Made by a program: the position numbers and the translations under genes. A stretch of 64,000 nucleotides of DNA, from contig CAZJVT010000003.1 of NCBI GenBank assembly GCA_964549935.1, positions 78,634 to 142,633 of the forward strand. The letters are read 5' to 3'. A model generated the notes under the pieces. The model was given only the letters and a program-made list of their open reading frames with translations. It ran no database searches and had not been told where the DNA came from. Shown piece by piece: positions 1 through 16,313 of this stretch; position 1 is the first letter of the stretch, and the number at the start of each line of letters is the position of its first letter. This DNA is from an uncultured Candidatus Saccharibacteria bacterium. GTDB lineage: Bacteria > Patescibacteriota > Minisyncoccia > UBA6257 > 1-14-0-10-44-23.

Positions 1-1632
1 GACGATCTGCTGGGTGACGGTCGAGTAGTAGAAGTAGTTGCCCTTGTCGAAGCCAAGAGGGCGGAGGTCGATGCTGCCGGTGCCGAGGCCGCCGCCGTTG
101 AGAAGCCTTTCCGCGGCGAGCCGCTTCGCAGCCTCGGCCGAGGTCTTCAGCGCATCGTCGAGGTCGCGGATCGGCACCTTGGCGCCGCGCAGCGATCCCT
201 TGACCATGTGGTAGCGCCCGAGATCGCGCTCCTTGAGATCGTTGAGCGCCTGGAGGGCTTCCGGGGCGAACGCGGCCTTCGGATCCTCCTCGCAGCTCTT
301 GATGTAGGCTTCGAAGTCGAAGCCGGCCGGATCGTCCTCTGGCGCCGCATCGGCATTTCGGCGGAAGGGCAGCACCTTCGCCGCCGGCTCCTCGTCCGGA
401 GGACCGGCCTTCGCCACGATCTCGGTCGCCTCCGAGCTGAGATCCCGATCTCCGGGAGCGCCGCCATGCTCCGCCAGCGCCGCCGCGAGCTCATCGTCCA
501 CGGGAGCCGCCGCCGCGACCTGCATCGCGCCCGCGATCATCGCCTCGAGGCGCTCCATCAGGAATTCCGGATCGCCTTCTGCATCGGCGATGTCCCAGCC
601 CTCCGGCAGGCTGGCGGGAACGTCGACCTCGAAGACCTCGATAGAGCTCAGCACGTCCAGGCCCGACCGGTCGTTCTCGGCCAGGAGGCGAAGGGCGATC
701 TCCTCCATCGCCTCACGGCCGACAAGGTCGTTGTCCGGCATGGTGATGACGCGCCATCCGGCGAAGACCGAGATATCGGCATGCCGGAAATTCTTGGTGC
801 CGCCGAGCGGCGACACGAAGGGGTAGCGGCCGGCGAAGAGCCGGTTTCCCGCGTCGGCGGCCTTCTCGCCCTCGACCAGGACGCAGGTCCTGGCCCCCTG
901 CCCGTCCTCGACCTCGCCCAGCAGGTCCGCTCCGTAGATGGGCTTCGGATCATCGAACCCGATCGACGCCCATCCTTCGCTTCCGTCCTCGAAGGAACAC
1001 CACGTCACCGGGACCGGGGACTTCTTCTTCTTGCCATCCCGCACCCACTCCATGCGGAGCACGTAGCCGAGCAGGCTCCCGGCCTTGTCGCGGTAGTCGT
1101 GGACCATCGCCGGCTGGAACTGGCGGCGCAGCGGCTTGCCGTCCTCGCCCGGGGACCAGTCGCCGAGCTCCTTGTTGCGGATCCTGACCGGCTGGGTGAC
1201 GTGGGGCCCCTTCGAGCCCCGCTCCCCGCCTTCGGCGAAGAGCGGCGTTGCCGCCACCGGGACCGGAAGGATCGGCCGCGGGACCGGCGGCGAAGCGCGG
1301 CGCTGCCGGCGTTCGACCGGCATTCCGCGGCGACCCTCGACATCGCCCTTGAGGATCTCGATCGCCTTCCCGGCTTCGACACCCTCGGCCTCCATCACCA
1401 TCTTCAGGGCGCTGCCATGCGCGCCGCAGCCGTAGCAGTGGTAGTGCTGGTCGCCTTCATCGTCGAAGACCTGGAACGACGGAGTCTTCTCGGAATGGAA
1501 GGGGCAAAGGCCGATATGGCGGCCCGCAACCATGCGGAGATCCGTATAGCGCTGCGCCACCTCGAGAATGTCGACCTGCGAGAGAAGCTCCTCGATGTCG
1601 ACCTTCTCCTTGTCCCCACGACGTCTGGGCAT
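1..1632 (-). CDS. DNA primase, CHC2 zinc-finger (DnaG-like) plus Toprim-like region; C-terminus runs off the window start
   Basis: Manual minus-strand translation from ATG at 1632 (RBS GGAGGGG upstream) gives MPRRRGDKEKVDIEELLSQVDILEVAQRYTDLRMVAGRHIGLCPFHSEKTPSFQVFDDEGDQHYHCYGCGAHG. This is the CHC2 zinc-ribbon signature of DnaG-type primases. No stop is reached before position 1. The antisense plus-strand ORF 208..1707 is Arg/Leu-rich. Confidence 0.7.
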   Translation of the reverse strand, partial: MPRRRGDKEKVDIEELLSQVDILEVAQRYTDLRMVAGRHIGLCPFHSEKTPSFQVFDDEGDQHYHCYGCGAHGSALKMVMEAEGVEAGKAIEILKGDVEGRRGMPVERRQRRASPPVPRPILPVPVAATPLFAEGGERGSKGPHVTQPVRIRNKELGDWSPGEDGKPLRRQFQPAMVHDYRDKAGSLLGYVLRMEWVRDGKKKKSPVPVTWCSFEDGSEGWASIGFDDPKPIYGADLLGEVEDGQGARTCVLVEGEKAADAGNRLFAGRYPFVSPLGGTKNFRHADISVFAGWRVITMPDNDLVGREAMEEIALRLLAENDRSGLDVLSSIEVFEVDVPASLPEGWDIADAEGDPEFLMERLEAMIAGAMQVAAAAPVDDELAAALAEHGGAPGDRDLSSEATEIVAKAGPPDEEPAAKVLPFRRNADAAPEDDPAGFDFEAYIKSCEEDPKAAFAPEALQALNDLKERDLGRYHMVKGSLRGAKVPIRDLDDALKTSAEAAKRLAAERLLNGGGLGTGSIDLRPLGFDKGNYFYYSTVTQQIV

Positions 1633-1711
1633 ATCCCCTCCCGAGTTCGTTATAAGAGTGTACGCCTCTGCTTTTTCATGAACAACAGAAACCGCAGGCC
1701 GAAATGAGTGC

Positions 1712-1738
1712 AATGTTAGAAATGTTAGAAATGTAAGA
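1712..1738. repeat. Tandem iteron-like repeats AATGTTAGA AATGTTAGA AATGTAAGA in the primase/GcrA intergenic region
   Basis: Direct reading of the sequence: caATGTTAGAAATGTTAGAAATGTAAGacg. The ATGTTAG/AATGTAA core recurs at 5494..5511, 5725..5741 and 40031. Confidence 0.6.
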
Positions 1739-1837
1739 CGATCCGGCACAGCGCATGCCCGCGCTGGCCTAGCTCCGGAACGTCAGGTTGGGCTGGTCGA
1801 TGTGGAGCGGCGCTCCGGGCGAGGGTCGCCTCACCCG

Positions 1838-2326
1838 CTAGACATGCAGGCTGTAGTCTTCCTGGCCGACGATCTCATTGTTCTGGGCGCAGGGGGTGCA
1901 TCGACGATGCCCGGCATGCTCGGACATGAAGAGCTTTCCGCATGAAGGCGCAAGACACCTGCGCATCTTGGTCACCAGCTTCCAGCTCCGCTCGCCGTCG
2001 ATGACCTTGTCGTCCCTCTTCGGCAGCCGGGGAACCAGCGAGCCGTTTTCGCCGCGGCCTCGCCCAGGAAGGTTCTGGCGATTGGCGCGAAGCTGGATGG
2101 AGGCAGGGGTCCGGCCCGGCATCTTCTTGGCGATCTGCTCGGCGGAAAGGCCCTGCGCCCAGAGATCCGTCAGCATCTGCTTGTCCGCCGCGGACCATTT
2201 CGGCCGCCGGCGGGGATCATCGCCGGCCGCAAGCGTGCTGGGGACCTGGGACTTTGTCGAGCCGGCTGACTGGCTCGAGATGGTGCTCGGCTGCGAGGGC
2301 GCTTGCGGCTGCGACAAGGCGCTCAT
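1838..2326 (-). CDS. GcrA-like cell-cycle regulator family protein (N-terminal extension possible)
   Basis: Protein contains W...LTDLWAQGLSAEQIAKKM, matching the GcrA N-terminal DNA-binding signature. A Cys-rich C-terminus (CLAPSCGK...CTPCAQ) is also as in GcrA. It overlaps the upstream gene by 4 nt, indicating an operon. Confidence 0.5.
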   Translation of the reverse strand: MSALSQPQAPSQPSTISSQSAGSTKSQVPSTLAAGDDPRRRPKWSAADKQMLTDLWAQGLSAEQIAKKMPGRTPASIQLRANRQNLPGRGRGENGSLVPRLPKRDDKVIDGERSWKLVTKMRRCLAPSCGKLFMSEHAGHRRCTPCAQNNEIVGQEDYSLHV

Positions 2327-2793
2327 GCCACGGCTCCTTCGACCATGCCGGGGACCTGACGCCGTGCGCTGGCGGAGCGGGCGGCCTGGAGCCGCGGACA
2401 GCCGGCGATGTAGGAAATGACCTTCGCGGCCGTCTCCGGCTTCGCCTGCCGGCCGCTGCGCAGCCCCTGGACGAAACCGGCGTCGTTCATGACCGAGGTG
2501 CCGAAGGCGCTGACGGCGATGCCCGTCTCGGAAAGATACATCTCGATCGTGGCGAGAAGCTGCGAGCCGGTGCGCCTGGCCGAGCGCCTGAGCCGCTGAA
2601 GCTTCTCAGGGTCGAGAAGATCCGCTGCGGAAGTGCCCTTGCCGGCTATGTCCCGGCCAAGAGCGGCGATGGCTTGGTTGCTTCTTGACATGACGACTGC
2701 TGTTCCGATCGTTCCTGTCAGGCTGCCGTGGACTGCTGCACCTGCTTGTGCAGGGTGCATAAGCATGATCCTAGGACGCGTCCCAGAAGTCAA
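2323..2793 (-). CDS. Putative DNA-binding (HTH-like) protein, co-transcribed with the GcrA-like gene
   Basis: 156-aa ORF with coherent composition. The segment SETGIAVSAFGTSVMNDAGFVQGLRSGRQAKPETAAKVISYI resembles phage-type HTH regulators. It is translationally coupled to the downstream ORF. Confidence 0.4.
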   Translation of the reverse strand: MTSGTRPRIMLMHPAQAGAAVHGSLTGTIGTAVVMSRSNQAIAALGRDIAGKGTSAADLLDPEKLQRLRRSARRTGSQLLATIEMYLSETGIAVSAFGTSVMNDAGFVQGLRSGRQAKPETAAKVISYIAGCPRLQAARSASARRQVPGMVEGAVA

Positions 2794-2824
2794 GCCGATC
2801 GGCTCGCCGGAGATCTAGATTTCC

Positions 2825-2930
2825 TTCCGGAATTCCGGAAGCGAACAGGTGTAGGACGAGTTTCCGGAATGCCAGAAAATCACGGGGTAGCCTGATCGAT
2901 CGGGCGATCCCGAATCCAGGTTTCCGGAAT
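2825..2930. promoter_or_regulatory. Operator-like array of TTCCGGAA palindromes upstream of the HTH/GcrA operon
   Basis: TTCCGGAATTCCGGAA at 2825..2840, GTTTCCGGAAT at 2860..2870 and GTTTCCGGAAT at 2920..2930. The core TTCCGGAA is self-complementary. The same core recurs at 23488..23496. Confidence 0.45.
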
Positions 2931-2959
2931 TTAACCTTGTTCGACAAGCAAATCCGGGA

Positions 2960-4500
2960 TCAGGAGTCGTCGAAGGCAGCGAGATCGACGTCGCCGCCGC
3001 GGCCGCCCATCGGACCATCATCCTCGATGGCGCTTCCCGCCTTCACCGCCTCGACGGCGCCGGCGACCACGTCCTTCGCCACCTCCGAGAAGCGCGAGAG
3101 GATCTCGAAGCCCTTACCCTTCTTCGACTGGCTCAGGCGAATGCTCGCCGTTTCCGTCAGGAACATCGACGGGTCGCCGCCCATCTCCTGGAACATCGCG
3201 CAGATCTCGGCGACGTTGAAATCGCCGCGCTTGAAGAACTTGTCCAGGTCGATACCCTTCCGGGACAGGAGGGCGCGAAGCTCCGCGACCAGGTCGATGT
3301 CCTTCTTCGCGGCGACCGCGAGGATCTCGTCGATGTCGATCGCGTCGGGGAGCCGCATGCTGTCGACATCGACGTTGGATCCGGTGAGCCGGGCCAGGCG
3401 CTTGGCCTCGTCGACCAGGCGCGGCACGCTCATGACGGGCTTGCCGGTGATGGTGCCGATCTCGCCAAGCTTGATCTTGCCGTCGCCGAGCTCGCCTGCC
3501 GTCTCGGCCCATGCCTTGATCCTGGTCTGGATCTCCTTCTCGCGCTCCTCGAGCTCGGACTTCATGGCCTTGATGCGGCCAAGGTCTCCGGCGGCTTCCA
3601 GGATGTCCTCGGGAACCTCGACGTCGATGGCCTTCCTCCGCTCGGGCCATGGCGGCAACTCGCCCTTCAGGACGAAGTCGTTCCAGAAGGTGGAGCCGGC
3701 GGCGACGAGCTCCTCGACCAGCTCCGGCTGGTAGGGCACCAGCTTCGGGTGCGGCTCGAACCGGTCGAGGTCGAACATGACGATGAAGCGGGCCTTGAAG
3801 CGAAGATCGAGCGTCGTCCGGCTGAGTTCGTCGTACTGGTGCAGCTGCGATTGCCAGTAGCTGGGCACCCCGCCGGAGACGTAGGTCGGGAAGGCGTTCG
3901 CCGAGGGGCACTTGTAGTCGACAAGGATCAGGTCCCCCGGCTCGAGGCGGAAGCCATCGAGGACACAGGAGACCCCGACCTTTACGATGTCGTCCGGGCT
4001 CGAGATCATCCAGCGGTGGACGGGATGCCGGCAGCCCGAAAGCTTCGCCAGCGCATCCTCATGGCTCTTCCCGCCGACCATGGCGTGGAAGGCATCCCGA
4101 ATGACGCCCTCCGAGCGGATGCCTCGAAGCATGTCGTCGCTCGGTGCGTCCGGCATGTACGCGAGCAGCTTCTCGCCGACGGTCTGGCGCGCGGTCTTGA
4201 AGGGGCTGGGCTCGCCGCGAAGCTCGTCGACGAGACCGCCAATCTCGGATCCGCCGATGCCGGTCAGCCGGCGCATGTGCCAGTAGCACCGCTTGGTGCC
4301 GCCGCCCTCGCGCTCGAGGATCATGCCGCACCAGCGGCGCGCCTTGTCCGGATCGAAGGACTGTCGGAGATGCGGCATGCCCGACAGCACGCGCATCATG
4401 TCCTTCTCCGCCCGCGTCCACTCAGCCGTGCCGGGACGGACGATCGCCGGCAGCGGCTCGGGAGCCGCCTGCGCCGGTTTATGAGCGAGGGCGGTGCTCA
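2960..4500 (-). CDS. YqaJ/lambda-exonuclease-like PD-(D/E)XK 5'-3' exonuclease with a roughly 250-aa C-terminal extension
   Basis: Start ATG (complement) at 4500 with GGGAAGGA RBS. The protein MSTALAHK... contains GIGGSEIGGLV and LILVDYKCP motifs (GxGxSE and the E.KCP-like hallmark of YqaJ/lambda Exo). The 820-aa ORF in the track is a run-on of this frame upstream of the real start. Confidence 0.65.
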
Positions 4501-4520
4501 TGCGAGAAGATCCTTCCCTG

Positions 4521-5346
4521 TTCAGGCGACGAACGCCGGCTCCGGGCGCCGCGCCGCGGCTGGCGTCGCCGGGAGGACGAGCTGGCGGTAGCTCTCCGGC
4601 AGGTCCGGCGAGAGCCGGCGGCCGGCATTGATCTGGTAGGAGCGGAAGATCGTCGATGCCTGGTTGCCGCGGATCGTGGCGAGAGGATCCGCGGGGTCGG
4701 TCTCGACGAGGCGCGCGGTCGTGAACTCCGCGACGACTTCCTCGACCAGCTTCTCGTAGCCGAGCGTCATGTCGTTGACCAGGTCGACCGTGAGGACGTC
4801 TGCGCCGAGATCGATGTAGGAGCGCGAGTCGGTGTAGCGCTTGAAGTCGCCGGTCGCCTTGTCGATCGCATGGATCCGGACGAGCATGACGTTCTCGCGG
4901 CCGAAGCGCTCGATCAGCGGCTCGTTCTCGCGGGTGAAGCCGGAATCCGCGATCAGGACGACCGAAGGATCGCTGGGGTTCGCCTCGCCGCCCATCATGC
5001 GATCGAGGCGCTGGAGGGCGAGCTCGCCGAAGATCCTCATGCCGTGGTGCGGCTTGTAGTAGGTCTCCGACACCGCGATGTAGGCTTCGCGCGGTGTCTT
5101 GCCTAGGAACCGCGGATTTGGAAGATCCTTGACCTCCTCGAAGTGATCGGGGCCGAGCGGTCGGCCGAATTCGTCGAAGAGCCCGTAAAGCGCGTGGGTG
5201 CGCTCCTTGAGCTCGTCGGCGAACTTCAGCTTGACCGGGCTGATGCCGAACTGGCCGTTGAACCCCTCGAGCACCGACGAGGTCGCCTTGCGGACCGAGT
5301 GATCCTTGCCGCAGCGCGGCGGTCCGTTGAACAGGCAGACGATCAT
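4521..5346 (-). CDS. P-loop kinase, phage dNMP-kinase-like
   Basis: N-terminus MIVCLFNGPPRCGKDH has a Walker A with the GKD variant typical of T4-type dNMP kinases. The stop lies 21 bp upstream of the exonuclease start on the same strand. Confidence 0.45.
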
Positions 5347-5439
5347 GGCGAAAACCCTGCGGCTCGGTGTCTGGTCCCGCCATTGTGCCACGCGGCGGCG
5401 AAAGCTCCAAACCTGTCGGCACATGCTTTTACAGCGTTC

Positions 5440-5900
5440 CGGATTGATCGAGCCTCGAGGCCGTCTATCGAGGTATTGCAGTAACTTACAAGATGTTAGG
5501 CGAAATGTAATAAGAGCAACGGCGAGTAAGTTGTTGATTTTGATAAGAGCCGTGGCGTTCTCTTATATATATTATATTTCTTATAGTATAAAAATATATA
5601 TATAGAATTAAAAGCCGTCCTGGACACAGACGCGCGTGGACGGACGCATGGGGATCCATGCGGTGTAATGTATGTAATAACTGTTAGATTGCTGATTTCT
5701 CTGGGGTTTTCAGCCCTGGCGGAAATTACATCGCCTAACAGGCCAGCCGCACAAGTCATTGGCGGCGAAGAGAAATCCCTCGGATGATAGGTCGATCTCG
5801 AGGAAAGCGCAAGAACTCGCGGCGATCGCCCCCACAGGATAGGCGAGCCATCGACCGATTGGCGCTTCCGGGCTTTTCACGTATGCTGGTGGTCGGGCGC
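5440..5900. promoter_or_regulatory. AT-rich divergent promoter hub with TA-repeat core, separating the minus-strand exonuclease operon from the plus-strand helicase operon
   Basis: Sharp GC drop. TA-rich core at 5562..5610 (tcttatatatattatatttcttatagtataaaaatatatatatag). A short hairpin CCGTCC...GGACGG is at about 5617..5643. The region contains no credible ORF. Confidence 0.4.
5494..5741. repeat. Imperfect 18-bp inverted repeats bracketing the AT-rich core
   Basis: Left arm TGTTAGGCGAAATGTAAT at 5494..5511. Right arm ATTACATCGCCTAACAG at 5725..5741, which is the reverse complement apart from a 2-nt gap. This is either a MITE-like footprint or paired operator sites. Confidence 0.45.
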
Positions 5901-5919
5901 GATTAATACGAGACGCACC

Positions 5920-6576
5920 GTGACCATCCCCGGGAAATCCGACCGCGAGACGGTCATGGAAGCGCTCCTTCAGCGCATCCTCGGTCGTCTCGACCCTTCC
6001 ACCGGTTGCGTCGCCGATCTCGACGCCGCCTCCCTCGGCCTCGACGGCGCCGCCTCGAACAAGATCATGGAGCGGATCGAGGGATACGCCATGGCGGCCG
6101 AGACCTTGTGGAATGCCTATTACGGACCCGGATCCAATCCCGAAAGCGTCGAATGGTTCGATGTGCAGCAGGCACTCGCCTTCGCCGCCGCCGCCACCGG
6201 CCGCGGAAATCCGGACTTCGTGCCTGGTGCCGACAAGGCCCTGATCTCGATCTTCAATGGATCCAGGTGTGTCGAGACGATCGACATCACCGACGAGGTT
6301 GTCAGGCTCGACGCGACATCGCTCGTCGCCATGATCGCCGATCCGACGCTGTGCTTCGACCATCCGGTACTGGCGTTGAAGCTCGACCGATCGAGGCTCG
6401 ATGAACTGCGTCTTTCAAGCCAGAAGGTTTCCGACTTCCTCGGCACCGAAGATCCGACGGACGAGCTCATGGAGGCGGTCCGCGAGCGCTACGGAATCGC
6501 CGAGAGCGAGAAGCTCGTCTCCATCATCGATGCGATCGCCAGCCTCCCGGGCGGCCCGCCTGCGGTGACGATGTGA
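5920..6576 (+). CDS. Hypothetical protein (first gene of the helicase operon)
   Basis: 218-aa ORF with non-repetitive, acidic composition. It overlaps the next ORF by 4 nt. No recognisable motif. Confidence 0.5.
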   Translation: MTIPGKSDRETVMEALLQRILGRLDPSTGCVADLDAASLGLDGAASNKIMERIEGYAMAAETLWNAYYGPGSNPESVEWFDVQQALAFAAAATGRGNPDFVPGADKALISIFNGSRCVETIDITDEVVRLDATSLVAMIADPTLCFDHPVLALKLDRSRLDELRLSSQKVSDFLGTEDPTDELMEAVRERYGIAESEKLVSIIDAIASLPGGPPAVTM

Positions 6577-7463
6577 AGGAGAAGCAGATGACCGGACGCG
6601 AAGCCCTCATCATCGAGATCGCCCAGGCGATCGAGCGCGCCTTCCTTTCCTGCGGGCGGAAGGTCCTGGTTCAGCCCCATTTCACCCTCAGGGAGTGGAC
6701 CTTCCTTGTGACCGAGCCTCGCGAGGACGGCCCGCGCGGCATCGGCAGCCTGACCTTCGCCGATCGCAAGGATCTCGACCGTCGCCTTGCCATCGCCGGA
6801 GTTCCTGGCTTCACCACGACCAATGCCGTCGGAGAGAAGGGTGCGGACGACATGTGGGTGTCGATCGACTCCCGCCTTGTTGGCGCCGCCGGCTTCGATA
6901 CGGATGCCGCGGAGGCGCTCGAGATCGTCCATACCGACCAAGTAGGCTTCGCGCTGGTGAAGGAGGACCCGGAGCGTGCGATCGCCTCCGGCGCCGCCTG
7001 CCGCCTCGACGCGACGGCGGTCGTGCTTTCCCTGAGCCTGCCGGTCCTCCATCGCATCGACCAGGTCGCGCCCTTGATCCAGGGCCTCGCCGGGGTTCCC
7101 TACAAGCGCTTCGCGACGAAGGTCACTGCCGCTTCCCTTTCGGCCTACTTCGGCGTGACCACCCCGTCCGAGATCTCGCTATCGATGCTCAACTCGGCCC
7201 GCCGCGCGGCCAGGCTTGTACCGCCCAAGGACCTGGTTCCGGTGGCTGACGGTGCGTTGCCGGTATCCGAGATCCTCGTGTTCCGGACCATCGATGTCCT
7301 CTCCAGGATCGGAGCCGGCCACGACCCGCAGAGGATCTCGGCCGACATCGATGCCGTGCGCAAGGAATGGGCCGACATGGCGAAAGGGCTGGTGGCGACG
7401 CGGGAGGGAATGGCCTCGCAGCAGCCTGGCTCGAAAGTCCCGCTCACCACTTTGTCTCTCTAG
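6573..7463 (+). CDS. Hypothetical protein (second gene of the helicase operon)
   Basis: 296-aa ORF, translationally coupled on both sides. Competing minus-strand ORFs are Arg/Ser-rich. Confidence 0.5.
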   Translation: MKEKQMTGREALIIEIAQAIERAFLSCGRKVLVQPHFTLREWTFLVTEPREDGPRGIGSLTFADRKDLDRRLAIAGVPGFTTTNAVGEKGADDMWVSIDSRLVGAAGFDTDAAEALEIVHTDQVGFALVKEDPERAIASGAACRLDATAVVLSLSLPVLHRIDQVAPLIQGLAGVPYKRFATKVTAASLSAYFGVTTPSEISLSMLNSARRAARLVPPKDLVPVADGALPVSEILVFRTIDVLSRIGAGHDPQRISADIDAVRKEWADMAKGLVATREGMASQQPGSKVPLTTLSL

Positions 7464-7481
7464 AATTGCCGGAAATCCAGG

Positions 7482-10265
7482 ATGCCACTCGATAACGTCG
7501 GCTCGTCCGATCCGACTTTCGCTACGGGCGATGGTCGTCGGAGATCTACGAGGCTGGGCCGCCGATCGAATCGGATCGCCCCGGACCCCCGTTATCAGGT
7601 CCAGGCGCTCGACGACATCGCCAGCACGCTGGCCGAGAACGATCGCGCAACCGCGGTCATGGCGTGCGGTGCCGGCAAGACGCTGGTTGCTCTGTGGACA
7701 GCCGAGCGCCAGAGCGCGCGCGTCATCCTTGTCCTGCTTCCGTCTCTGTCGCTCCTCAGCCAGACGCTGAAGACATGGAAGAGGGAGAATGTCTGGGGGA
7801 GCAGGTTCAGCTACATCTGCGTCTGCTCGGACGAGACCGTCGACGCCGGCACCGACGATCCGTCGATGGACGAAGGCTCGATTGATTTCCCGATCGACAC
7901 CGACCCAGCCGAGGTGAGGAAGTTCCTCAGGTCTCGCATCGACGACGTCAAGGTCGTCTTCTCGACCTACCACTCGGCATCGATCGTCGGCGAGGCCGCG
8001 GCCAAGCTGAAAGCGTTCGACTTAGGTGTTTTCGACGAGGCACACCGGACCGCCGGCGCCGCCGGCCGCTCCTTCGGCTTCGCTCTCTCTGACAGGAACA
8101 TTCGGATTCGCAAGCGCCTGTTCATGACGGCGACGCCGCGCCACGTTGATATCCGGCATCGCGATCGTGACGGTGACTTCTGCTCCCGGTCGATGGACGA
8201 CGAGGAGATCTACGGCCCACGCGCCTACACCCTCTCCTTCGCCAAGGCGGTGCGGCTCGGGATCATCTCACGCTACAAGGTCATCGTCTCGATGATCGAT
8301 AAGAAGATGGTCTCGGATTTTGCGCGCAAGCATGGAATCACTCTCGTCAAGGGCGATGCGATCGCTGCCACGAAGATCGCCAACCTGATCGCGATGCGCC
8401 AGGCGATCGGAGCGGTCGACGCGCGCAAGATCATCACCTTCCATGGCCGCGTTCAGCGAGCGAAGGACTTCGCCTCCGATCGTGACGACGGCATCGCACG
8501 CTATCTCGACGGCTTCGAGGTACATCACGTAAACGGCAAGCAGGCCAGTGGAGAGCGCGGCGGCATCATCCGGTCCTTCGCCGAAGCCGATCGCAGCCTC
8601 ATCACGAACGCCAGGTGCCTGACAGAAGGCGTCGACGTCCCGGCGGTCGACATGGTCGCCTTCATCGATCCCAAGCAGAGCCGGATCGACATCGCCCAGG
8701 CCGTCGGCCGAGCCATGCGTAAGCCGCGGGGCCCGACGAGGAAGATCTGCGGCTACGTGGTCATCCCGTTGTTCGCCGGCATGGACGGTGATGATCTTGA
8801 AGATGCGATCAAGGACGGCCGCTTCGACGCGATCGCCGAGGTCGTCAACGCGCTGCAAGAGCATGACGAGGAACTTGTCGAGATCATCAAGGGTATCCGC
8901 GAGCGGAAGGGCGCCGGCGAGAGTTCCTATGGCGGCGAGCTCGGTGACACGATCGAAGCAATTGGCCCTTTCGTGGATCTCGACAAGCTAGCGGCGAGCA
9001 TCGCGGTCGAGGTCGCTGACCGGATCGGTTCCGGCTGGGATGAATGGTATGGGCGACTGAAGAGTTTCGCTGAACGCGCAGGACATTGCAGCGTACCGAG
9101 AGATTACAGAGAGGGCGGATTTAATCTCTCACGGTGGGTTGCTTATCAGCGCCATGCCGCAAAGAAGCTGTCGCCGGATAAGCGGGCAAAACTCGACTCG
9201 ATTGGTTTTTCTTGGAATGTGCGCGCTGATGAGTTCGATAAGGGATATTCGGTCCTCGTGGCTTATCATGCTCGCGAAGGCCATACTCGAGTCCCCTCGC
9301 GTCACATGGAAAGTGGCTTTCGCCTGGGGTCTTGGGTCGCCTCCCGGCGCAAGCACTGCGACAGAATGTCGACTACCCAGAGAGCATCGCTCGACGCGAT
9401 CGGCTTCATCTGGGATCCGTTCGCCGAAGACTTCATGCATGGACTCAACCAGCTCGTTGCTTTCAAGGCGCGCACCGGACACTGCCGGGTACAGGATGGG
9501 TACAAGTCAGAGGGGTTCGATCTCGGAACCTGGGTAGGCACGCAACGCAGGAATCGAGATACCCTGTCCACGGACCGCAAAGCGAAGCTCGATGACATCG
9601 GCTTCATCTGGGATCCGTTCGCCGAAGACTTCATGCGCGGGCTCAACCAGCTCGCTGCTTTCAAGGCGCGCACCGGACACTGCCGGGTACACCCTAAACA
9701 CAAGGAAGACGGATTTAATCTCGGGGCCTGGGTAGGTACGCAACGCAGGAATCGAGATACCGTGACAGTTGACCGTAAGGCGAAGCTCGACGCGATCGGC
9801 TTCATCTGGGATCCGCTAGTCGAAGACTTCATGTGCGGGCTCGCCGCGCTTACTGCTTTCAGAGCCCGCAACGGCCATTGCCGATTGCCTGCAGGGCACA
9901 AGGAAGGTGAATTCAACCTCGCGAACTGGGTCAATAACCTGCGCGCACGAAATAGACGAAACAACTTGCCGGCAGATCGCAAGGCGATGCTCGATGGCAT
10001 CGGTTTCATCTGGGACCCACTGACCGATACCTTGATTCGAGGGCTCGCCCTGCTCAAAGCTTTCCAATCCACCAATGGCCACTGTCGGGTGCCTTTCAGC
10101 TACAAGGTCGACGAATTCAACCTTGGAACCTGGGTCTGGAAGCTACGCAAAAGGCGAGACCTGTCGCCTGACTTCAAGGAGGCGCTCGACAAAATCGGCT
10201 TCTATGAAAACATGACCTATGCCGCGGGAGTATCAGCCAACACATCTAAAGTCATGGCTTCATGA
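7482..10265 (+). CDS. Superfamily-2 DEAH-box helicase (ResIII-like N-terminus) with a C-terminal array of helicase-associated (HA) domain repeats
   Basis: Motif I AVMACGAGKTLVAL, motif II VFDEAHR, motif III MTATP, motif VI-like QAVGRAMR. The C-terminal 400 aa are six or seven roughly 66-aa repeats with W..W/LG.WV...R and G(F/H)IWDP signatures typical of HA domains. Confidence 0.75.
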   Translation: MPLDNVGSSDPTFATGDGRRRSTRLGRRSNRIAPDPRYQVQALDDIASTLAENDRATAVMACGAGKTLVALWTAERQSARVILVLLPSLSLLSQTLKTWKRENVWGSRFSYICVCSDETVDAGTDDPSMDEGSIDFPIDTDPAEVRKFLRSRIDDVKVVFSTYHSASIVGEAAAKLKAFDLGVFDEAHRTAGAAGRSFGFALSDRNIRIRKRLFMTATPRHVDIRHRDRDGDFCSRSMDDEEIYGPRAYTLSFAKAVRLGIISRYKVIVSMIDKKMVSDFARKHGITLVKGDAIAATKIANLIAMRQAIGAVDARKIITFHGRVQRAKDFASDRDDGIARYLDGFEVHHVNGKQASGERGGIIRSFAEADRSLITNARCLTEGVDVPAVDMVAFIDPKQSRIDIAQAVGRAMRKPRGPTRKICGYVVIPLFAGMDGDDLEDAIKDGRFDAIAEVVNALQEHDEELVEIIKGIRERKGAGESSYGGELGDTIEAIGPFVDLDKLAASIAVEVADRIGSGWDEWYGRLKSFAERAGHCSVPRDYREGGFNLSRWVAYQRHAAKKLSPDKRAKLDSIGFSWNVRADEFDKGYSVLVAYHAREGHTRVPSRHMESGFRLGSWVASRRKHCDRMSTTQRASLDAIGFIWDPFAEDFMHGLNQLVAFKARTGHCRVQDGYKSEGFDLGTWVGTQRRNRDTLSTDRKAKLDDIGFIWDPFAEDFMRGLNQLAAFKARTGHCRVHPKHKEDGFNLGAWVGTQRRNRDTVTVDRKAKLDAIGFIWDPLVEDFMCGLAALTAFRARNGHCRLPAGHKEGEFNLANWVNNLRARNRRNNLPADRKAMLDGIGFIWDPLTDTLIRGLALLKAFQSTNGHCRVPFSYKVDEFNLGTWVWKLRKRRDLSPDFKEALDKIGFYENMTYAAGVSANTSKVMAS
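9390..10200. repeat. Intragenic tandem DNA repeats of about 198 bp encoding the HA-domain array
   Basis: Near-identical stretches begin near 9397, 9597, 9795 and 9996. For example, cgatcggcttcatctgggatccgttcgccgaagacttcatgc occurs at about 9397 and about 9597. Identity is at the nucleotide level, not only the protein level. Confidence 0.7.
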
Positions 10266-10429
10266 CCAACTCCCTCGACGAGCCCCATCATGGGCAGGCC
10301 CCGGGTTCGTAAACGACCGGCCTGAACGAAGCCCACCTGGGTTGATAAATGCCGCCGCGCACCCGGCAGCTCCTCCTTTACATAAATCCTGTTTGCTGTT
10401 ATCTATGCTGACAACACCGGAGGAAGCCG

Positions 10430-11077
10430 ATGTCCGCCAACACCGCCAAGCGCAGCCTTTCACTCGCCGCCGCCATGCTCGCGGCCACGCTCGTTTCCTC
10501 ACCGGCTTCCGCCGATCTCCGCAACATCATCCAGAGCCAGCTGCAGGGGCAGCTCCAGCAGCGCGCGATGCCCGGCGTCGCTGCCGGGGTCCCCACCATC
10601 CAGCGGCCGCAGGGCTTTGCGCCCAGCGCCTCCTTCCAGACCTGCTTCACGCCCGGCAACGACTGCACCGGGCTGATCGTGCAGACGATCCGCGAGGCGC
10701 GCAGCCAGGTCCTGGTCATGGCCTACGAGTTCACGTCCGATCCGATCGAGCAGGCCCTGCTCGACGCGAAGCGTCGTCGCCTCGATGTCCGTGTCGTCCT
10801 CGACAAGACCCAGACCCAGCCGAACCGGCGCTCGGCGCGCCTCTTCACCCAGACCGGCATCCCGGTCGTGATCGATGCGCAGCCGGCGATCGCGCACAAC
10901 AAGGTGATGATCCTCGACGGCGTGTCGGTGATCACCGGCAGCTTCAACTTCACGCTCTCCGCCCAGACGCGCAACGCCGAGAACGTGCTGATCGTGCGGA
11001 ACGCGCCCGAGCTCGCGCGGGGCTACATCGGCAACTGGGAAGCGCGCGCCCGGGCCAGCCAGGCGTTCGGAGGTTGA
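10430..11077 (+). CDS. nuc: Nuc-like phospholipase-D-family endonuclease with signal peptide
   Basis: The N-terminal region AAAMLAATLVSSPASA is signal-peptide-like. A single HKD motif HNKVMILDGVSVITGSFNFT (HxKx4Dx6GSxN) is present. Size and architecture resemble the plasmid periplasmic nuclease Nuc. RBS GGAGGAAG precedes the ATG. Confidence 0.7.
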   Translation: MSANTAKRSLSLAAAMLAATLVSSPASADLRNIIQSQLQGQLQQRAMPGVAAGVPTIQRPQGFAPSASFQTCFTPGNDCTGLIVQTIREARSQVLVMAYEFTSDPIEQALLDAKRRRLDVRVVLDKTQTQPNRRSARLFTQTGIPVVIDAQPAIAHNKVMILDGVSVITGSFNFTLSAQTRNAENVLIVRNAPELARGYIGNWEARARASQAFGG

Positions 11078-11081
11078 GACC

Positions 11082-11591
11082 ATGAGGCACAAGCCGAACA
11101 TCCACCTTCCGTACACGCGGAAACAGCTCCTCGATTGGGTCGATGCCTCGAAGCTGTCGAAGGCCGTCGCGCTCCTCAAGCGTGGCAAGTCTGGCCGCGA
11201 GATCGATCTGCTCATCCATCTGGGGCTCTGCGACGTCGACGACGCCTACAAGGGCTGGCGCTTCTGGCACGGCGGCAAATGGATCGCTCTCCGAAAGGGC
11301 GCCGAGACCATCGAGCTGGGCTCCGTGCCCAACTACTCGACGTCGAAGGATGCCATGGACTTCCTTCTGTCGCTCCTGCCGGAAGCGAGCATCGCGTCCA
11401 GCTTCGAGAGCTTCGTGGATGTCGTGGCCTCGGTGACCTATGTCAAAGGACGGATCTCTCGCTATGCCGACCTGAAGATCAAGGGAGGTCGAGAGCCGTC
11501 GATCGAGGCCGCGGCGCGCTGTGGAGCCCTGCTTCGTCTTCTGCTTCTCCTTGTTGCAGACAAGGCGCGGCCCGCGAAGGCCGGGGCGTGA
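11082..11591 (+). CDS. Hypothetical protein, paralog A of a tandem pair
   Basis: Shares YSTSKDA..LL..ASI.SSF and AAARCGALLRL blocks with the next ORF. Confidence 0.5.
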   Translation: MRHKPNIHLPYTRKQLLDWVDASKLSKAVALLKRGKSGREIDLLIHLGLCDVDDAYKGWRFWHGGKWIALRKGAETIELGSVPNYSTSKDAMDFLLSLLPEASIASSFESFVDVVASVTYVKGRISRYADLKIKGGREPSIEAAARCGALLRLLLLLVADKARPAKAGA

Positions 11592-11671
11592 GCCATCCTG
11601 TCGTCATCTAGATAGCTCGACACGCGAAAACCCGACCGGCGCCGGCCCGGTCTCGAGGAAGGGTCATCAAG

Positions 11672-12241
11672 ATGCAAAAGATTCCCCATCATCGTGAGCC
11701 TTCCAATCTCACCTCGCTGATCTCGCGCGTCGACCCTCTGTCGCTCCGCGTAATCGCGACCTACATCGAGGCCGGCCGCCGCGGCCGCAAGATCGACTTC
11801 CTCGTCCACCAGGCAATGGCCGAACATCACCTGGCCCTCCAGGGGTGGCGCTATGGCCGTGCCGGCGAGCATCTCGCGATCGAGATCCGTCGACGCCTTG
11901 CCAAGCCGCGCCTTATTCATGGCGTCCCGCGCTACAGCACGTCCAAGGACGCGCTCGACGGGATCGTCCGGCTTCTCCTCCCGCAGGCTTCCATTACATC
12001 GTCCTTCGGCGCCGGCCGCTCTCGCATCGTCGCCGAGACGACCTATGCGAACACGCGTGGCGAAGCCTACATGACCAAGGCGACGGTTCCTGCCAGCAAC
12101 GATCCGGCAGCGGAAGCCGCGGCACGATGCGGCGCTGTCCTGCGCCTGGTAGCCGACATGGCGGTCGAGCGGAGGCGCTTTGCCGACGAGCAGTCCGAAG
12201 ATCGCGGCCGGGCGCCGAAGAAGCGGAACCCTCGCTCGTGA
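11672..12241 (+). CDS. Hypothetical protein, paralog B of a tandem pair
   Basis: Shares RYSTSKDALDGIVRLLLPQASITSSF and AAARCGAVLRL blocks with 11082..11591. Confidence 0.5.
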   Translation: MQKIPHHREPSNLTSLISRVDPLSLRVIATYIEAGRRGRKIDFLVHQAMAEHHLALQGWRYGRAGEHLAIEIRRRLAKPRLIHGVPRYSTSKDALDGIVRLLLPQASITSSFGAGRSRIVAETTYANTRGEAYMTKATVPASNDPAAEAAARCGAVLRLVADMAVERRRFADEQSEDRGRAPKKRNPRS

Positions 12242-13095
12242 CCTGCCGCCTTCCATCGGTCGATCTCGACAAGCGATGGCTCGATCGTCGCGAACGCTGG
12301 GCGCGGCCCGACGTCGTCTTCGATCCCCGCGGCTATGCGGTCGAGGTCGTGCCTGAGCGTCTCGCCCGGGATCTCGTCCTGGCCCATCACTACTCGGGAT
12401 CCTTCCCCGCGGCTCGCCTCTCCGTCGGCCTCTTCCGCAAGTCGGGTCCGGCTGCCGCGGCGGAGCTCGCCGGCGTCGCCGTCTTCTCCGTTCCTATGTC
12501 CTCCGCGGTGATCCCGGCACGCGTCGGCATTCCCGCTGCCGAGGGTGTCGAGCTCGGCCGCTTCGTCTGCCTGCCCGAGGTCGCCTTCAACGGCGAGACC
12601 TGGTTCCTTCGCCGCGCGCTCGCCGCCCTCCGCGTCGAGAAGCGAGAGGTTCGCGCGGTGCTCTCCTATGCCGACCCCCTCGAGCGATGGACAGAGGGCG
12701 GCCTCCTCTGCAAGCCCGCCCATTACGGCACCATCTACCAGGCCGGGAACGCGTCCTTCATCGGCCGCGCCAAACCCAGCTTCGTCGTCATGACCCGTGG
12801 AGGCCAGGTGGTCTCCGGCCGCTCGCTCTCGAAGATCAGGACGCAGGCTCGCGGCCACGTCTATGCGAGCGAGCAGCTCGAGGCCGCCGGCGCCGATCCG
12901 CGCCGACCGCTCGAGGATCCGTCCGACTGGCTTCGCCGCGTGCTGGTCGAGCCCGCCTTCGTGAAGGTCCGTCACCCCGGCAACTACTGCTATGCGTTCG
13001 GGCTCGATCGCGCGGTGAACCAGAACCTGAAGCCGCGGGCGCTCGCCTACCCGAAGAAGCCGACCCAGGCGCCGGAACTGGCGGAGGCCGCCTGA
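12238..13095 (+). CDS. Hypothetical protein with conserved HHYSGSFP motif (possible Mom-like/acyltransferase-fold enzyme, uncertain)
   Basis: GTG start overlaps the upstream stop (GTGA). The ORF-track entry 11845..13095 is an upstream run-on in the same frame. The protein has the LAHHYSGSFPAARLSVGLF and YCYAFG motifs. Confidence 0.4.
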   Translation: MTCRLPSVDLDKRWLDRRERWARPDVVFDPRGYAVEVVPERLARDLVLAHHYSGSFPAARLSVGLFRKSGPAAAAELAGVAVFSVPMSSAVIPARVGIPAAEGVELGRFVCLPEVAFNGETWFLRRALAALRVEKREVRAVLSYADPLERWTEGGLLCKPAHYGTIYQAGNASFIGRAKPSFVVMTRGGQVVSGRSLSKIRTQARGHVYASEQLEAAGADPRRPLEDPSDWLRRVLVEPAFVKVRHPGNYCYAFGLDRAVNQNLKPRALAYPKKPTQAPELAEAA

Positions 13096-13097
13096 CC

Positions 13098-13349
13098 ATG
13101 ACCGCGACGCTCGTCTTCGAGCATGAAGGGTGGGCTGTCGCCACCTCTGCCTGGACGGCCGCGGCAGTGGAAGGCACGAGGTCGACCGAGATCTGCTACG
13201 TCTGGTCCATGCTGCCGTCGATGGGCGTGCTCGCCAGCTCGACCGGCGTCGAGCGCCTTACGCTCAGCATCCCCTTCGCGGAATTCCTGGATCGGGTGAA
13301 AGGCGGCGGCGTCGTCGACTTCCGCCGGACAGAAGGAGAGAGCCCATGA
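13098..13349 (+). CDS. Small hypothetical protein
   Basis: ATG at 13098, 3 nt after the upstream stop. 83 aa. Coupled to the next ORF. Confidence 0.35.
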   Translation: MTATLVFEHEGWAVATSAWTAAAVEGTRSTEICYVWSMLPSMGVLASSTGVERLTLSIPFAEFLDRVKGGGVVDFRRTEGESP

Positions 13350-13597
13350 GCGAGGCGACCGCCCGGCTGTCGCGCGAGGATCTCCTCCGCCTGAAGCACA
13401 AGCTGGTGGGCTCGTGCGACTCGGTCGAGCTGGCCCTCAGCCAGCTCGACCTCGAAGCCTTCGAAGGGTGCGACATGGAGGACCAGCTGCTCGACGTCAA
13501 CGTCGAGCCTTGCGCGGTCTGCGGCTGGTGGTTCGAGAGCCACGATCTCGACCCGGACGTGAACCCCAAGGGCCCCGTCTGCACGGATTGCACCTGA
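13346..13597 (+). CDS. Small Cys-containing hypothetical protein (possible zinc ribbon)
   Basis: ATGA overlap with the upstream gene. C-terminus PCAVCGWW...PVCTDCT. Confidence 0.4.
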   Translation: MSEATARLSREDLLRLKHKLVGSCDSVELALSQLDLEAFEGCDMEDQLLDVNVEPCAVCGWWFESHDLDPDVNPKGPVCTDCT

Positions 13598-13598
13598 G

Positions 13599-13871
13599 AT
13601 GCCGGGCACCGGCATCACCATCGGCGGTATCCAGGCGTCCCGAGGCTCGGCGACCGTCTATTGCGGCAATCCGCTCTGCTACAGGTTTCGCCACGGCGCG
13701 ACCAGGAGCCTGAAGCTGGAAACCCTGCCGCCACAGGTCACGGTGGACGAGGTGAAGGTCAGACTTCGCTGCGATGCCTGCGACATGTTCCAGGCCGAGA
13801 TCGTGGTCGTGCTCGGATCGAAGGGGAGCGGCAAGATCGGCCAGGCGGAAATGCGAGGTCTTTTCCGCTGA
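13599..13871 (+). CDS. Small Cys-containing hypothetical protein
   Basis: 90 aa with YCGNPLCY and CDACD pairs. Immediately follows the previous gene. Confidence 0.4.
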   Translation: MPGTGITIGGIQASRGSATVYCGNPLCYRFRHGATRSLKLETLPPQVTVDEVKVRLRCDACDMFQAEIVVVLGSKGSGKIGQAEMRGLFR

Positions 13872-13872
13872 T

Positions 13873-14259
13873 CTAGTCGAGTTGCGGTCTACTACCCCAC
13901 CATCCCGCCAGCTGGCTAAGCACGTAGAAACCGGCGATGAAGACGATCAGGCCGATCAGGCCCTTCGCGTCGGCCCATATCTCCTGCCGGGTCATGGTCG
14001 GGGTCCGGCGAAGCCAGCTGATCAGGCCCCTGGCGCCCATGACATAGGCTGAACCGATCTGACCGAACGCGAAGGCCAGGGCCATGACCATGGCGATCGC
14101 CAGGCCGAGCCCGAAGATCATCCCCCAGTCCCAACCCAGGTAGATCAGGGCGCAGGCCGCCGCGGCGATCGCAACCAGGAGCGTGAACTCGCCATATCGC
14201 CTGACCAGGTAGTCAATGCGCTCGCCTGTTTTCATCGGGTCAGGTTGGTATCTCGCCAT
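13873..14259 (-). CDS. Integral membrane protein (3-4 predicted TM helices)
   Basis: Hydrophobic stretches LLVAIAAAACALIYLGW, MIFGLGLAIAMVMALAFAF and LIGLIVFIAGFYVL. Confidence 0.5.
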   Translation of the reverse strand: MARYQPDPMKTGERIDYLVRRYGEFTLLVAIAAAACALIYLGWDWGMIFGLGLAIAMVMALAFAFGQIGSAYVMGARGLISWLRRTPTMTRQEIWADAKGLIGLIVFIAGFYVLSQLAGWWGSRPQLD

Positions 14260-14372
14260 GGCTCGCGAACCAGATCATATTGCCTTCTCCGATGCGATCT
14301 CAAATCGCGGCGTGCCTGGATCCTGGGATTATGCAACTCTGATAAGTCATTTTTTTCAATGAATTAACCGAG

Positions 14373-14488
14373 TTATAGCGAGTTTATCTCAGTTTATGAT
14401 TTTTTCATAAACTTAGGTAACTTCCTTGAAATTAGGAAAGTAAGTATATATTATCAAAATCAGATAAACCGCCCTAAGGTCGCTATAA
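14373..14488. promoter_or_regulatory. AT-rich promoter with inverted repeat TTATAGCGA ... TCGCTATAA abutting the ATPase start codon
   Basis: TTATAGCGA at 14373..14381 and its exact reverse complement TCGCTATAA at 14480..14488. The ATG is at 14489. GTTTAT motifs are repeated in between. Confidence 0.4.
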
Positions 14489-15721
14489 ATGGACCCCAGA
14501 ACCAATCCCTATGCGCCCGGCGCCGGCTCCCAGCCGCCCGAGCTCGCGGGTCGTGACGAGATCCTGGAGAAGGCCGCGACCGCGCTCGACCGCATCAAGG
14601 CCGGCAAGCAGGCAAGGAGCCTGGTCCTCCACGGCCTTCGCGGGGTCGGCAAGACCGTGCTGCTCAACAAGATCCGGCGCGAGGCCGAGGCACGCGACAT
14701 CCAGAGCGTCGTCATCGAGGCGCCAGAGCATCGCTCCCTCCCCGGGATCCTGGTGCCGGCGCTGCGTGCCGTGCTGATCCGTCTCGATCGCGTCGAGGCC
14801 ACGAAGGCTATCTTCGGCAAGGCCAAGAAGGCGCTCGCCGGCCTGGCGAAGGCCGCGAAGGTGAAATACGAGGACGTCGAGTTCGGTCTCGACTTCGAGG
14901 TCGAGGACGGCCTGGCCGACTCCGGCGACCTCGAGCACGACCTGGGCGAGCTCTTCATGGCGGTCGGCGAGGCTGCCAAGGCGCGCAACACGGCGATCGT
15001 CCTCTACATCGACGAGGTGCAGTATGTGCCCGAGGAGCAACTGGCGGCCCTGATCTCCGCGCTGCATCGCGCGGCGCAGGAGATGCTGCCGGTGACCATG
15101 CTCGCCGCCGGCCTGCCGCAGATCCTGGGGCAGATGGGCAAGGCCAAGTCCTATGCCGAGCGTCTCTTCGAGTTCACCGAGATCGACAGCCTGGGCGCGG
15201 AGTCGGCGAAGAAGGCGCTCTGCAAGCCGGCGGAGGCCGAGAAAGTCACGTTCGAGCAGGGCGCGATCGACGAGATCCTCGAGCAGACCAAGGGGTATCC
15301 GTACTTCCTCCAGGAATGGGGCAAGCACAGCTGGAACATCGCGGCATCCTCGCCGATCACCGCGGCGAACGCGCGCGAGGCGACCAAGTCGGCGATCGCC
15401 GAGCTGGATGCGAGCTTCTTCAGCGTGCGCCTCGATCGCCTGGCGCCGGCGGAGAAGCTTTATCTCCGGGCCATGGCCGAGCTCGGGCCCGGACCGCACC
15501 GCTCGGGCGATATCGCCGCGAGCCTGGGCAAGCCGGTCAACCTCGTCGCACCTACGAGAAACAGCCTCATCGCCAAAGGTATGGTGTTCAGCAAGGCGCA
15601 TGGCGACACCGCCTTCACCGTGCCGCTCTTCGATGGCTTCATGAAGAGGGCCATGGTGTTCAAGCCCGAGGACGGACATAAGCGCAAGCGCGCGGCCGAG
15701 CCGAAGCCGCCGGGCATGTAG
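14489..15721 (+). CDS. AAA_16-type (Orc1/STAND-like) P-loop ATPase with C-terminal winged-helix-like region
   Basis: N-terminus NPYAPGAGSQPPELAGRDEIL then Walker A LHGLRGVGKTVLL. Walker B VLYIDEVQ. Confidence 0.65.
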   Translation: MDPRTNPYAPGAGSQPPELAGRDEILEKAATALDRIKAGKQARSLVLHGLRGVGKTVLLNKIRREAEARDIQSVVIEAPEHRSLPGILVPALRAVLIRLDRVEATKAIFGKAKKALAGLAKAAKVKYEDVEFGLDFEVEDGLADSGDLEHDLGELFMAVGEAAKARNTAIVLYIDEVQYVPEEQLAALISALHRAAQEMLPVTMLAAGLPQILGQMGKAKSYAERLFEFTEIDSLGAESAKKALCKPAEAEKVTFEQGAIDEILEQTKGYPYFLQEWGKHSWNIAASSPITAANAREATKSAIAELDASFFSVRLDRLAPAEKLYLRAMAELGPGPHRSGDIAASLGKPVNLVAPTRNSLIAKGMVFSKAHGDTAFTVPLFDGFMKRAMVFKPEDGHKRKRAAEPKPPGM

Positions 15722-16290: not shown

Positions 16291-16313
16291 GCGATCGAGC
16301 AGGGAGAGCTGTC

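Follow-up and report, generated by a model that had tools for sequence, protein, structure and literature searches.

The Type ISP enzymes LlaGI and LlaBIII, together with the 'conjugation helicase' TtrA, are the closest described systems with which to compare a helicase gene found in a 64,000-nucleotide stretch of contig CAZJVT010000003.1 (hereafter 'the window', meaning that stretch at its full length). The feature under study, at positions 5920-10265 of the window, comprises two genes termed orf1 and orf2, followed by a gene for a superfamily 2 (SF2) helicase that terminates in a tandem array of HA domains. The motor of LlaGI and LlaBIII, a translocase on double-stranded DNA, is homologous to that of the window helicase over both RecA cores and the helices that follow them, whereas the nuclease, methyltransferase and target recognition regions are missing from the window protein, in which the C-terminal half is instead made up of the HA array. 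A further group of relatives, exemplified by the database proteins P0011 and P0017, consists of an Mrr-type nuclease, a motor and an HA array, and displays the same motor, linker and HA units as the window helicase; those proteins possess a nuclease of approximately 180 residues and 5 to 13 HA units, whereas the window copy has no nuclease and six units. They are annotated as 'superfamily II DNA or RNA helicase' and, in the contexts examined, stand alone among differing neighbours, with no methyltransferase adjoining them; a search of the literature for a paper characterising such nuclease-motor-HA proteins found none.

Published accounts of TtrA, from Streptomyces, present it as a 'conjugation helicase' that is telomeric, has tandem HA domains and is involved in the transfer of linear replicons (bioRxiv 10.1101/2024.11.13.623437; PMC9195940), and within the literature searched the only indications of function for any HA-array helicase are genetic hints obtained for TtrA. 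Binding of DNA by an isolated HA domain, that of BVU_0683 (PDB entry 2kta), was reported by Mills 2013, according to a passage of PMC12191111. This domain belongs to the same Pfam family, PF03457, as the units of the window protein, to which it was matched by sequence; it differs from them in being a single domain, from a Bacteroides protein.

Set against these systems, the window helicase is a plasmid-borne, nuclease-less form of the HA-array SF2 helicases, a known and functionally obscure class, and does not constitute a new system. The favoured reading, with a probability of about 0.6, is that the protein acts as an ATP-driven translocase on double-stranded DNA that uses six basic HA units for anchoring or targeting, that it neither cuts nor methylates DNA, and that it is carried as accessory cargo which probably serves the DNA transactions of the element itself.

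Domain organization of the helicase and absence of a nuclease

A sequence-only reading of this DNA had described an SF2 helicase of the DEAH type that ends in HA repeats, and domain searches bear that description out. The Pfam models ResIII, DEAD and Helicase_C score above their cut-offs over residues 37-420, the helicase motifs are intact (MACGAGKT in motif I, DEAH in motif II, TATP in motif III and QAVGRAMR in motif VI, with the Walker A element at residue 60), and six HA units follow. A search of the PDB with phmmer matched residues 38-470 of the query to LlaGI (5ffj, E = 2e-47) and to LlaBIII (4xqk, E = 1e-46), and the protein corresponds to positions 171-650 of the 1646 positions in the Type IIG/ISP model of PADLOC. 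Protein searches with the helicase returned thousands of significant matches, some of which correspond in the motor alone or in the HA units alone; the close relatives considered throughout are the best 120 matches, which display 42-54% identity over approximately 95% of the query. Of the 145 positions that hardly vary across that family, the motor of the window copy keeps 137, and the substitutions at the others are for the most part conservative.

Approximately 100 of the 120 best relatives begin with a domain of about 180 residues that places their Walker A element at residue 205-209 or thereabouts, and which scores weakly as Mrr_cat_2. For one full-length relative, P0011, the alignment begins at residue 29 with LlaBIII and at position 18 with the PADLOC model, and takes in the Mrr nuclease; the additional domain therefore corresponds to the Mrr-like nuclease of Type ISP enzymes. 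When seven N-termini from the family were compared with the window by tblastn, no remnant of such a nuclease was detected anywhere within it, and homology to the family starts at nucleotide 7572 (residue 31 of the helicase). No methyltransferase or target recognition domain was found in the helicase either, Pfam displaying only HA units after residue 517. Since it has neither nuclease nor methylase, the protein cannot restrict DNA. The local GC content over the gene is 0.60, as compared to 0.65 for the window.

Among the close relatives, only one other (P0090, from contig L043, positions 912-7797) is without the nuclease at a mid-contig position. Directly upstream of its helicase gene, four small genes are duplicated in tandem over 3.6 kb, which hints at a rearrangement that removed the nuclease domain of P0090.

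Repeat structure of the HA array

The HA family of Pfam matches the helicase in six stretches, with 338 bits against a cut-off of 28.4 (E = 4.6e-103), and six units were delimited, which together span residues 517-907 (nucleotides 9030-10202). Where six or seven repeats had previously been proposed from the sequence, the count of six stands; the residues that would make up a seventh (470-516) are instead the conserved linker that follows the motor throughout the family. The array, whose units are three-helix modules, is basic (isoelectric point 9.7, net charge +19), and the tail of 20 residues behind it (10203-10262) is absent from the C-termini of the relatives. A DNA repeat of approximately 198 base pairs, as originally described, was recovered by Tandem Repeats Finder, which reported a period of that length at 9389-9931, with 2.7 copies and 80% matches.

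The same reading had further held that four of the units are nearly identical at the nucleotide level and were recently duplicated, and neither proposition survives a codon-aware comparison of pairwise nucleotide identity among the six units. Only HA3 and HA4 are alike, and then only to the extent of 84%; the other pairs among HA3 to HA6 display 65-70% identity, HA1 and HA2 display 48-55% identity to all others, and the longest exact direct repeats within the array measure 40, 36 and 31 nucleotides. The mean identity between units is 0.31, versus a median of 0.48 for the family, and is the sixth lowest among the 120 closest members, so that the array ranks with the most diverged of them and is not unusually young. 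The number of HA units in the family is most often eight or nine, as compared to six in the window copy. In three members (P0010, P0051 and P0026) the units are nearly or fully identical, with a mean of 0.92 in P0010. Judged from the repeats themselves, recent expansion does happen in the HA-helicase family, yet not in the window copy: expansion is a trait of the family, and the window array displays only one old-looking duplication. An unequal exchange between HA3 and HA4 would keep the reading frame, because 198 base pairs correspond to 66 codons, and it would have just 40 nucleotides of identity on which to rest.

Three independent short-read assemblies from Logan (L004, L005 and L006) are 100% identical to the window. 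The first two stop at position 9418, where a repeated 31-mer ends, and the third ends at 8976. The repeated stretches lie at 9389-9419 and 9785-9815 (the 31-mer), and at 9399-9438 and 9597-9636. The termination of L004 and L005 represents a break in the k-mer graph, and no biological boundary. Because these assemblies end at or before 9418, they neither confirm nor contradict the copy number of the HA units; a collapse of the array during assembly is unlikely, because the units diverge by at least 16%.

Nuclease-less relatives on plasmids

A survey of PLSDB, conducted with the helicase by tblastn, yielded matches in 612 records, 166 of which cover at least 80% of the query, with Streptomyces (281) and Pseudomonas (115) prominent among the sources. 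The megaplasmid pWTJH17 of P. aeruginosa, which is typed to mating-pair-formation class MPF_I, encodes a protein of 885 residues (WP_043313038.1; 32% identity) with its Walker A element at residue 33, six HA units and no nuclease. A plasmid of Cupriavidus pauculus likewise encodes, beside trfA, a protein of 857 residues (WP_150982763.1; 33% identity) with an HA array and no nuclease. Both correspond to the window helicase in displaying a short leader, a motor and an HA array and in being plasmid-borne, at 32-33% identity over 80-92% of the query. The mating-pair-formation class of pWTJH17 is also that of the window, and the genes upstream of its helicase are unrelated to orf1 and orf2.

The Streptomyces plasmid matches lie within approximately 0.6-3.6 kb of the ends of their records, where ttrA is known to be located. 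One TtrA-like open reading frame (ORF) of an actinomycete, at L019:9626-12232, encodes 868 residues without an Mrr-like nuclease and is 27% identical to the window helicase from end to end (E = 4e-63). TtrA and the window protein are alike in combining a nuclease-less SF2 motor with tandem HA domains, and in being located on conjugative replicons. TtrA-like proteins differ in having a smaller number of HA units (about three for the ORF of L019) and a low identity to the window protein, and in their telomeric position on linear replicons; the window gene, in contrast, is internal to its element, flanked by more than 7 kb in one direction and by 54 kb in the opposite one.

An orphan gene pair and an exchangeable cargo gene

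The two proteins encoded upstream of the helicase gave no match to Pfam, PHROG, PADLOC or NCBIfam. Homologues were sought in 5.8 billion protein clusters and, for orf1, with a profile among 1.84 billion representatives. Only two clear homologues were found for orf1 (P0124, 61%; P0125, 41%) and only one of full length for orf2 (P0122, 48%); the profile search added two further weak hits to orf1, neither with informative Pfam domains. A third lineage, represented by L050, harbors a partial homologue of orf2 (42% identity) directly behind a homologue of orf1, with an 11-nucleotide gap. No relatives of either protein were found in metagenome contigs from JGI or in IMG/VR. Structure prediction with AlphaFold2, which was given the only homologues available, produced unusable models (predicted local distance difference test scores of 41 for orf1 and 46 for orf2). 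The orf1 product is acidic, with an isoelectric point of 4.3 and a net charge of -17.

The pair is kept in three lineages of this type of element, orf2 always lying directly behind orf1 except in the sister element L001, where an additional ORF of 86 codons intervenes. Between the window and that sister element, orf1 and orf2 display 62% and 51% amino-acid identity, as compared to 89% for a downstream nuclease of the phospholipase D (PLD) family, 83% for a Mom-family protein and 93% for an AAA_16 ATPase, which indicates that the pair evolves more rapidly than its neighbours. The pair heads a rightward cluster that includes the Mom-family DNA-modification gene. It is an orphan backbone gene pair.

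The sister element also demonstrates that the position of the helicase is a hot spot for cargo. In blastn comparisons with L001, homology extends over window positions 5479-7328 and 10542-16933 and is broken over the interval between them, in which the helicase resides (Table 1). The gene order of L001 is orf1, the 86-codon ORF, orf2, a 118-codon gene and HipA, the PLD nuclease, paralogous small genes, Mom and AAA_16; the 118-codon gene and the HipA-family kinase toxin (2734-4508 of L001) thus occupy the slot of the helicase. No flanking direct or inverted repeats that would explain an exchange of cargo were found. Compared at the DNA level, the region yielded no match in phage genomes and, in plasmids, only short matches of about 70%, located inside the helicase and PLD genes.

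The sequence-only reading had treated the three genes as one functional unit that should co-occur, and a co-occurrence analysis found them apart, an outcome that the reading itself had named as grounds for refutation. The orf1-orf2 pair is present without the helicase in L001, L002 and L003. Conversely, in a survey of the surroundings of helicase relatives (7-10 kb around each), no orf1 or orf2 was found at any of 36 genome loci or at any of six places on metagenome contigs that represent five close relatives; for a sixth relative, of which a gene table was inspected, no matching neighbour is listed. Because the pair exists without the helicase, and relatives of the helicase exist without the pair, orf1 and orf2 belong to the backbone and the helicase is exchangeable cargo. 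The apparent trio is a cargo gene that lies beside two orphan backbone genes, and the earlier idea, in which a hypervariable tail accompanied a new three-gene system, mostly dissolves, neither of its parts having held.

The PLD-family nuclease that follows the helicase belongs to the backbone as well. Its N-terminus, as read from the sequence, resembles a signal peptide (MSANTAKRSLSLAAAMLAATLVSSPASA), as in the periplasmic Nuc/NucT nucleases, and the protein is 84-89% identical in L001, where it lies beside HipA. These two properties indicate that it is not the missing nuclease of the helicase. Periplasmic nucleases of the Nuc/NucT type are found on conjugative plasmids.

Interpretation and alternatives

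According to the favoured reading, the HA array would hold DNA while the motor moves along the duplex at the expense of ATP, and the helicase would serve the transfer of the element, its establishment or its conflict with host enzymes, by analogy with TtrA and with the plasmid helicases of Pseudomonas and Cupriavidus. The observations on which this reading was built are the domain make-up, the integrity of the motifs, the absence of a nuclease, the status of the gene as cargo and its lack of linkage to orf1 and orf2. From these we infer movement along double-stranded DNA, the binding of DNA through the HA units, and a biological role. Several points weigh against it. The closest proteins in sequence are the nuclease-bearing forms (42-54%), as opposed to the nuclease-less plasmid forms (27-33%), and the nuclease-less state may be a recent truncation, not an adapted form; eight mismatches at invariant positions of the family place the window copy at rank 99 of 103 members; the sister element does without the helicase, which is therefore dispensable for the element; and TtrA itself is poorly defined in function, with a telomeric location that has no counterpart in the window.

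A different reading is that of a decaying relic, in which a chromosomal nuclease-motor-HA gene would have been captured with its 5' end cut and would have no function on the element. Nearly all of the closest relatives carry the nuclease, homology begins abruptly at nucleotide 7572 behind an unrelated leader of 30 residues, the GC content and the GC content at third codon positions (GC3) fall below those of neighbouring genes in a manner that suggests foreign origin, departures from invariant positions are more numerous than in 95% of relatives, six HA units are few for a family in which 5 to 13 occur, and the sister element manages without the gene. A frame of 927 codons is nevertheless intact with all of its ATPase motifs, the point of truncation coincides exactly with the border of a domain, and the nuclease-less layout is kept on more than 100 Pseudomonas megaplasmid records, on the Cupriavidus plasmid and on Streptomyces plasmids, such that decay is an unlikely account of the gene. 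A novel three-gene system composed of orf1, orf2 and the helicase would agree with their common strand, their gaps of 11-18 nucleotides, the lack of a terminator-like site and the poor characterisation of all three, but the pair and the helicase were each found without the other, orf1 and orf2 occur in three lineages among billions of proteins as against thousands of matches to the helicase, and the similarity of the sister elements at the DNA level is interrupted precisely between orf2 and the PLD gene; this makes such a system very improbable. Hardest of all to credit is a split restriction system similar to SauUSI (Type IV), made up of the helicase and the PLD nuclease encoded downstream of it. 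The two genes adjoin with a gap of 165 nucleotides, PLD nucleases are known as fusions to helicases (SauUSI) and to HA domains (PMC12191111), and the PLD protein is weakly similar, by NCBIfam, to DrmC of DISARM; against this stand its signal-peptide-like N-terminus, its retention in L001 where HipA replaces the helicase, and the absence of a PLD neighbour from helicase relatives elsewhere.

An anti-restriction decoy was also considered, in which the motor, loaded on the DNA of the element, would collide unproductively with host enzymes of Type I, Type ISP or the nuclease-motor-HA kind and thereby block double-strand cleavage. In favour of such a function are the presence of a Mom-family DNA-modification gene in the rightward cluster to which the helicase gene belongs, the recurrence of nuclease-less forms on conjugative plasmids, and a passage of PMC7049714 stating that Type ISP cleavage needs two converging translocating enzymes. 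The proposal is nonetheless purely inferential, no anti-restriction protein of that kind was found in the literature searched, and the toxin-antitoxin module in the same slot of the sister element suggests generic cargo, leaving the decoy quite improbable. A broader and speculative version, which may be granted only a slim chance, would regard nuclease-less HA translocases as a recurrent counter-measure of plasmids, loaded through their HA domains onto incoming plasmid DNA and neutralising, by unproductive collision, the translocating restriction enzymes of the host, the nuclease-bearing Mrr-motor-HA relatives among them, with the rapidly evolving orf1 and orf2 perhaps sharing in an early anti-defence programme. 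If that were true, the nuclease-bearing relatives would be an unrecognised and very abundant single-protein restriction family.

Whichever role applies, HA-array helicases are very abundant, the nuclease-bearing forms being solitary in the chromosomal-looking contexts examined and the nuclease-less forms being found on plasmids. The sister elements are set apart only by what a single slot carries, the helicase or HipA, and provide a clean natural comparison for the use of such a helicase to a plasmid.

Gene layout and the surrounding conjugative element

The three ORFs had been placed on one strand at the positions listed in Table 1, and gene calls together with coding-type GC3 values (0.80 for orf1, 0.84 for orf2 and 0.73 for the helicase) confirm them; since these values are high within a window of 65% GC, the ORFs are real genes. 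The mechanical start of orf2 is a GTG at 6573, which would overlap orf1 by 4 nucleotides. The ATG at 6588 is the better start: it is preceded by AAGGAG, and an identical database protein (P0121) has 291 residues. With that start, gaps of 11 and 18 nucleotides separate the three genes, and no terminator-like site was found between them. Of the earlier description of two co-transcribed unknown proteins upstream of the helicase, the position and the want of any family match hold, and co-transcription is plausible from the tight gaps and the absence of a terminator-like site, and is thus probable only; the helicase is probably read from the promoter of orf1 and orf2. That promoter is presumed, from the gene layout, to lie in the intergenic region upstream of orf1, in which a sigma-70-like consensus was looked for and not found. 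The remark that the organization matches no textbook system is also supported.

The orf2 and helicase genes share a reading frame, with only a TAG stop codon (7461-7463) and 18 nucleotides between them, such that read-through would fuse the two products. The shared frame is probably a coincidence, because the orf2 of L001 ends at the same position of the alignment.

Table 1. Positions of the features discussed, numbered along the window (aa, amino acids; nt, nucleotides)
Feature	Position	Strand	Description or basis
Intergenic region between diverging genes	5425..5919	.	Between the leftward gene 4522-5346(-) and orf1
orf1	5920..6576	+	218 aa; acidic orphan backbone gene
orf2	6588..7463	+	291 aa from ATG 6588; mechanical ORF start at GTG 6573
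Variable cargo slot	7329..10541	.	blastn against L001 and protein synteny
Helicase	7482..10265	+	927 aa; nuclease-less HA-array SF2 helicase or putative translocase; cargo gene
Arg-rich N-terminal leader	7482..7571	+	30 aa, unrelated to the family; replaces the Mrr-like nuclease of about 180 aa in the closest relatives
Type ISP-like SF2 motor	7572..9029	+	aa 31-516; two RecA cores and helical linker; phmmer, PADLOC, motifs
HA repeat 1	9030..9209	+	aa 517-576; Pfam HA, segmentation
HA repeat 2	9210..9407	+	aa 577-642; segmentation
HA repeat 3	9408..9605	+	aa 643-708; 84% nt and 79% aa identity to HA4
HA repeat 4	9606..9803	+	aa 709-774; segmentation, repeat comparison
HA repeat 5	9804..10007	+	aa 775-842 (68 aa); segmentation
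HA repeat 6	10008..10202	+	aa 843-907; followed by the 20-aa tail at 10203-10262
PLD-family nuclease	10430..11077	+	Neighbouring backbone gene outside the helicase unit; Pfam PLDc_2, NCBIfam NucT/DrmC-like

The Logan assembly L004, which is 100% identical to window positions 1-9418, reaches 3.4 kb beyond the start of the window, and its upstream part encodes DotH/IcmK, DotI/IcmL and a DnaG-type primase of 1102 residues. The window itself has a gene set of the sort expected on large conjugative elements, including genes for a GcrA-like protein, a YqaJ/RecE-like exonuclease, the PLD nuclease, a Mom-family protein, an AAA_16 ATPase and a Fic protein, as well as UvrD, a Strawberry-notch-like helicase, topoisomerase III, an RNA ligase and a second primase. 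From this gene content the window reads as part of a conjugative element of the Dot/Icm (MPF_I) type. A prophage, as might be suggested by the YqaJ/RecE-like, Mom, GcrA-like and primase genes, was considered and rejected in view of the DotH/IcmK and DotI/IcmL genes immediately upstream on L004. Searches for tRNA genes and Rfam families in the window detected none. The host of the element is probably alphaproteobacterial, because the window encodes a GcrA-like protein and homologues of its AAA_16 ATPase occur on sphingomonad and Microvirga plasmids.

Several further genes of the element deserve brief description. Between the PLD gene and the Mom gene lie two paralogous small genes (11082-11591 and 11672-12241, both on the + strand; 36% identical), of which L001 harbors more copies. 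The Mom-family gene itself extends from approximately 12256 to 13095 (+); the mechanical ORF of 416 codons (11845-13095) probably starts too far upstream, given that the Mom protein of L001 aligns only from about 12256. The AAA_16 ATPase (14489-15721, +) displays weak matches to nSTAND6 and nSTAND1 and is 93% identical in the sister element; its homologues, at 58-68%, are encoded by plasmids of Microvirga, Sphingomonas, Sphingobium, Novosphingobium, Azoarcus and Pseudomonas, and on the one Sphingobium baderi plasmid that was examined the homologue lies near a relaxase and a Type I restriction system. A protein of 1080 residues at 19923-23165 gave no match to Pfam or PADLOC. The segment at 29489-42868 (+) encodes a UvrD-like helicase of 826 residues, a Strawberry-notch-like protein of 1691 residues, a protein of 791 residues with no Pfam match, and a topoisomerase III with a DUF5710 tail.

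Two primase genes of the DnaG type, with CHC2 zinc fingers, are located at 1-1782 (-) and 59194-60690 (+), the former being the one that encodes 1102 residues in full on L004, beside the Dot/Icm genes. The Fic-domain protein (18046-19746, -; 566 residues) matches the candidate defence family PDC-S24 of PADLOC almost from end to end (E = 7e-144). A Fic protein of pWTJH17 (L052, 2895-4400), encoded 2.5 kb from the HA helicase of that megaplasmid, is 32% identical to it.

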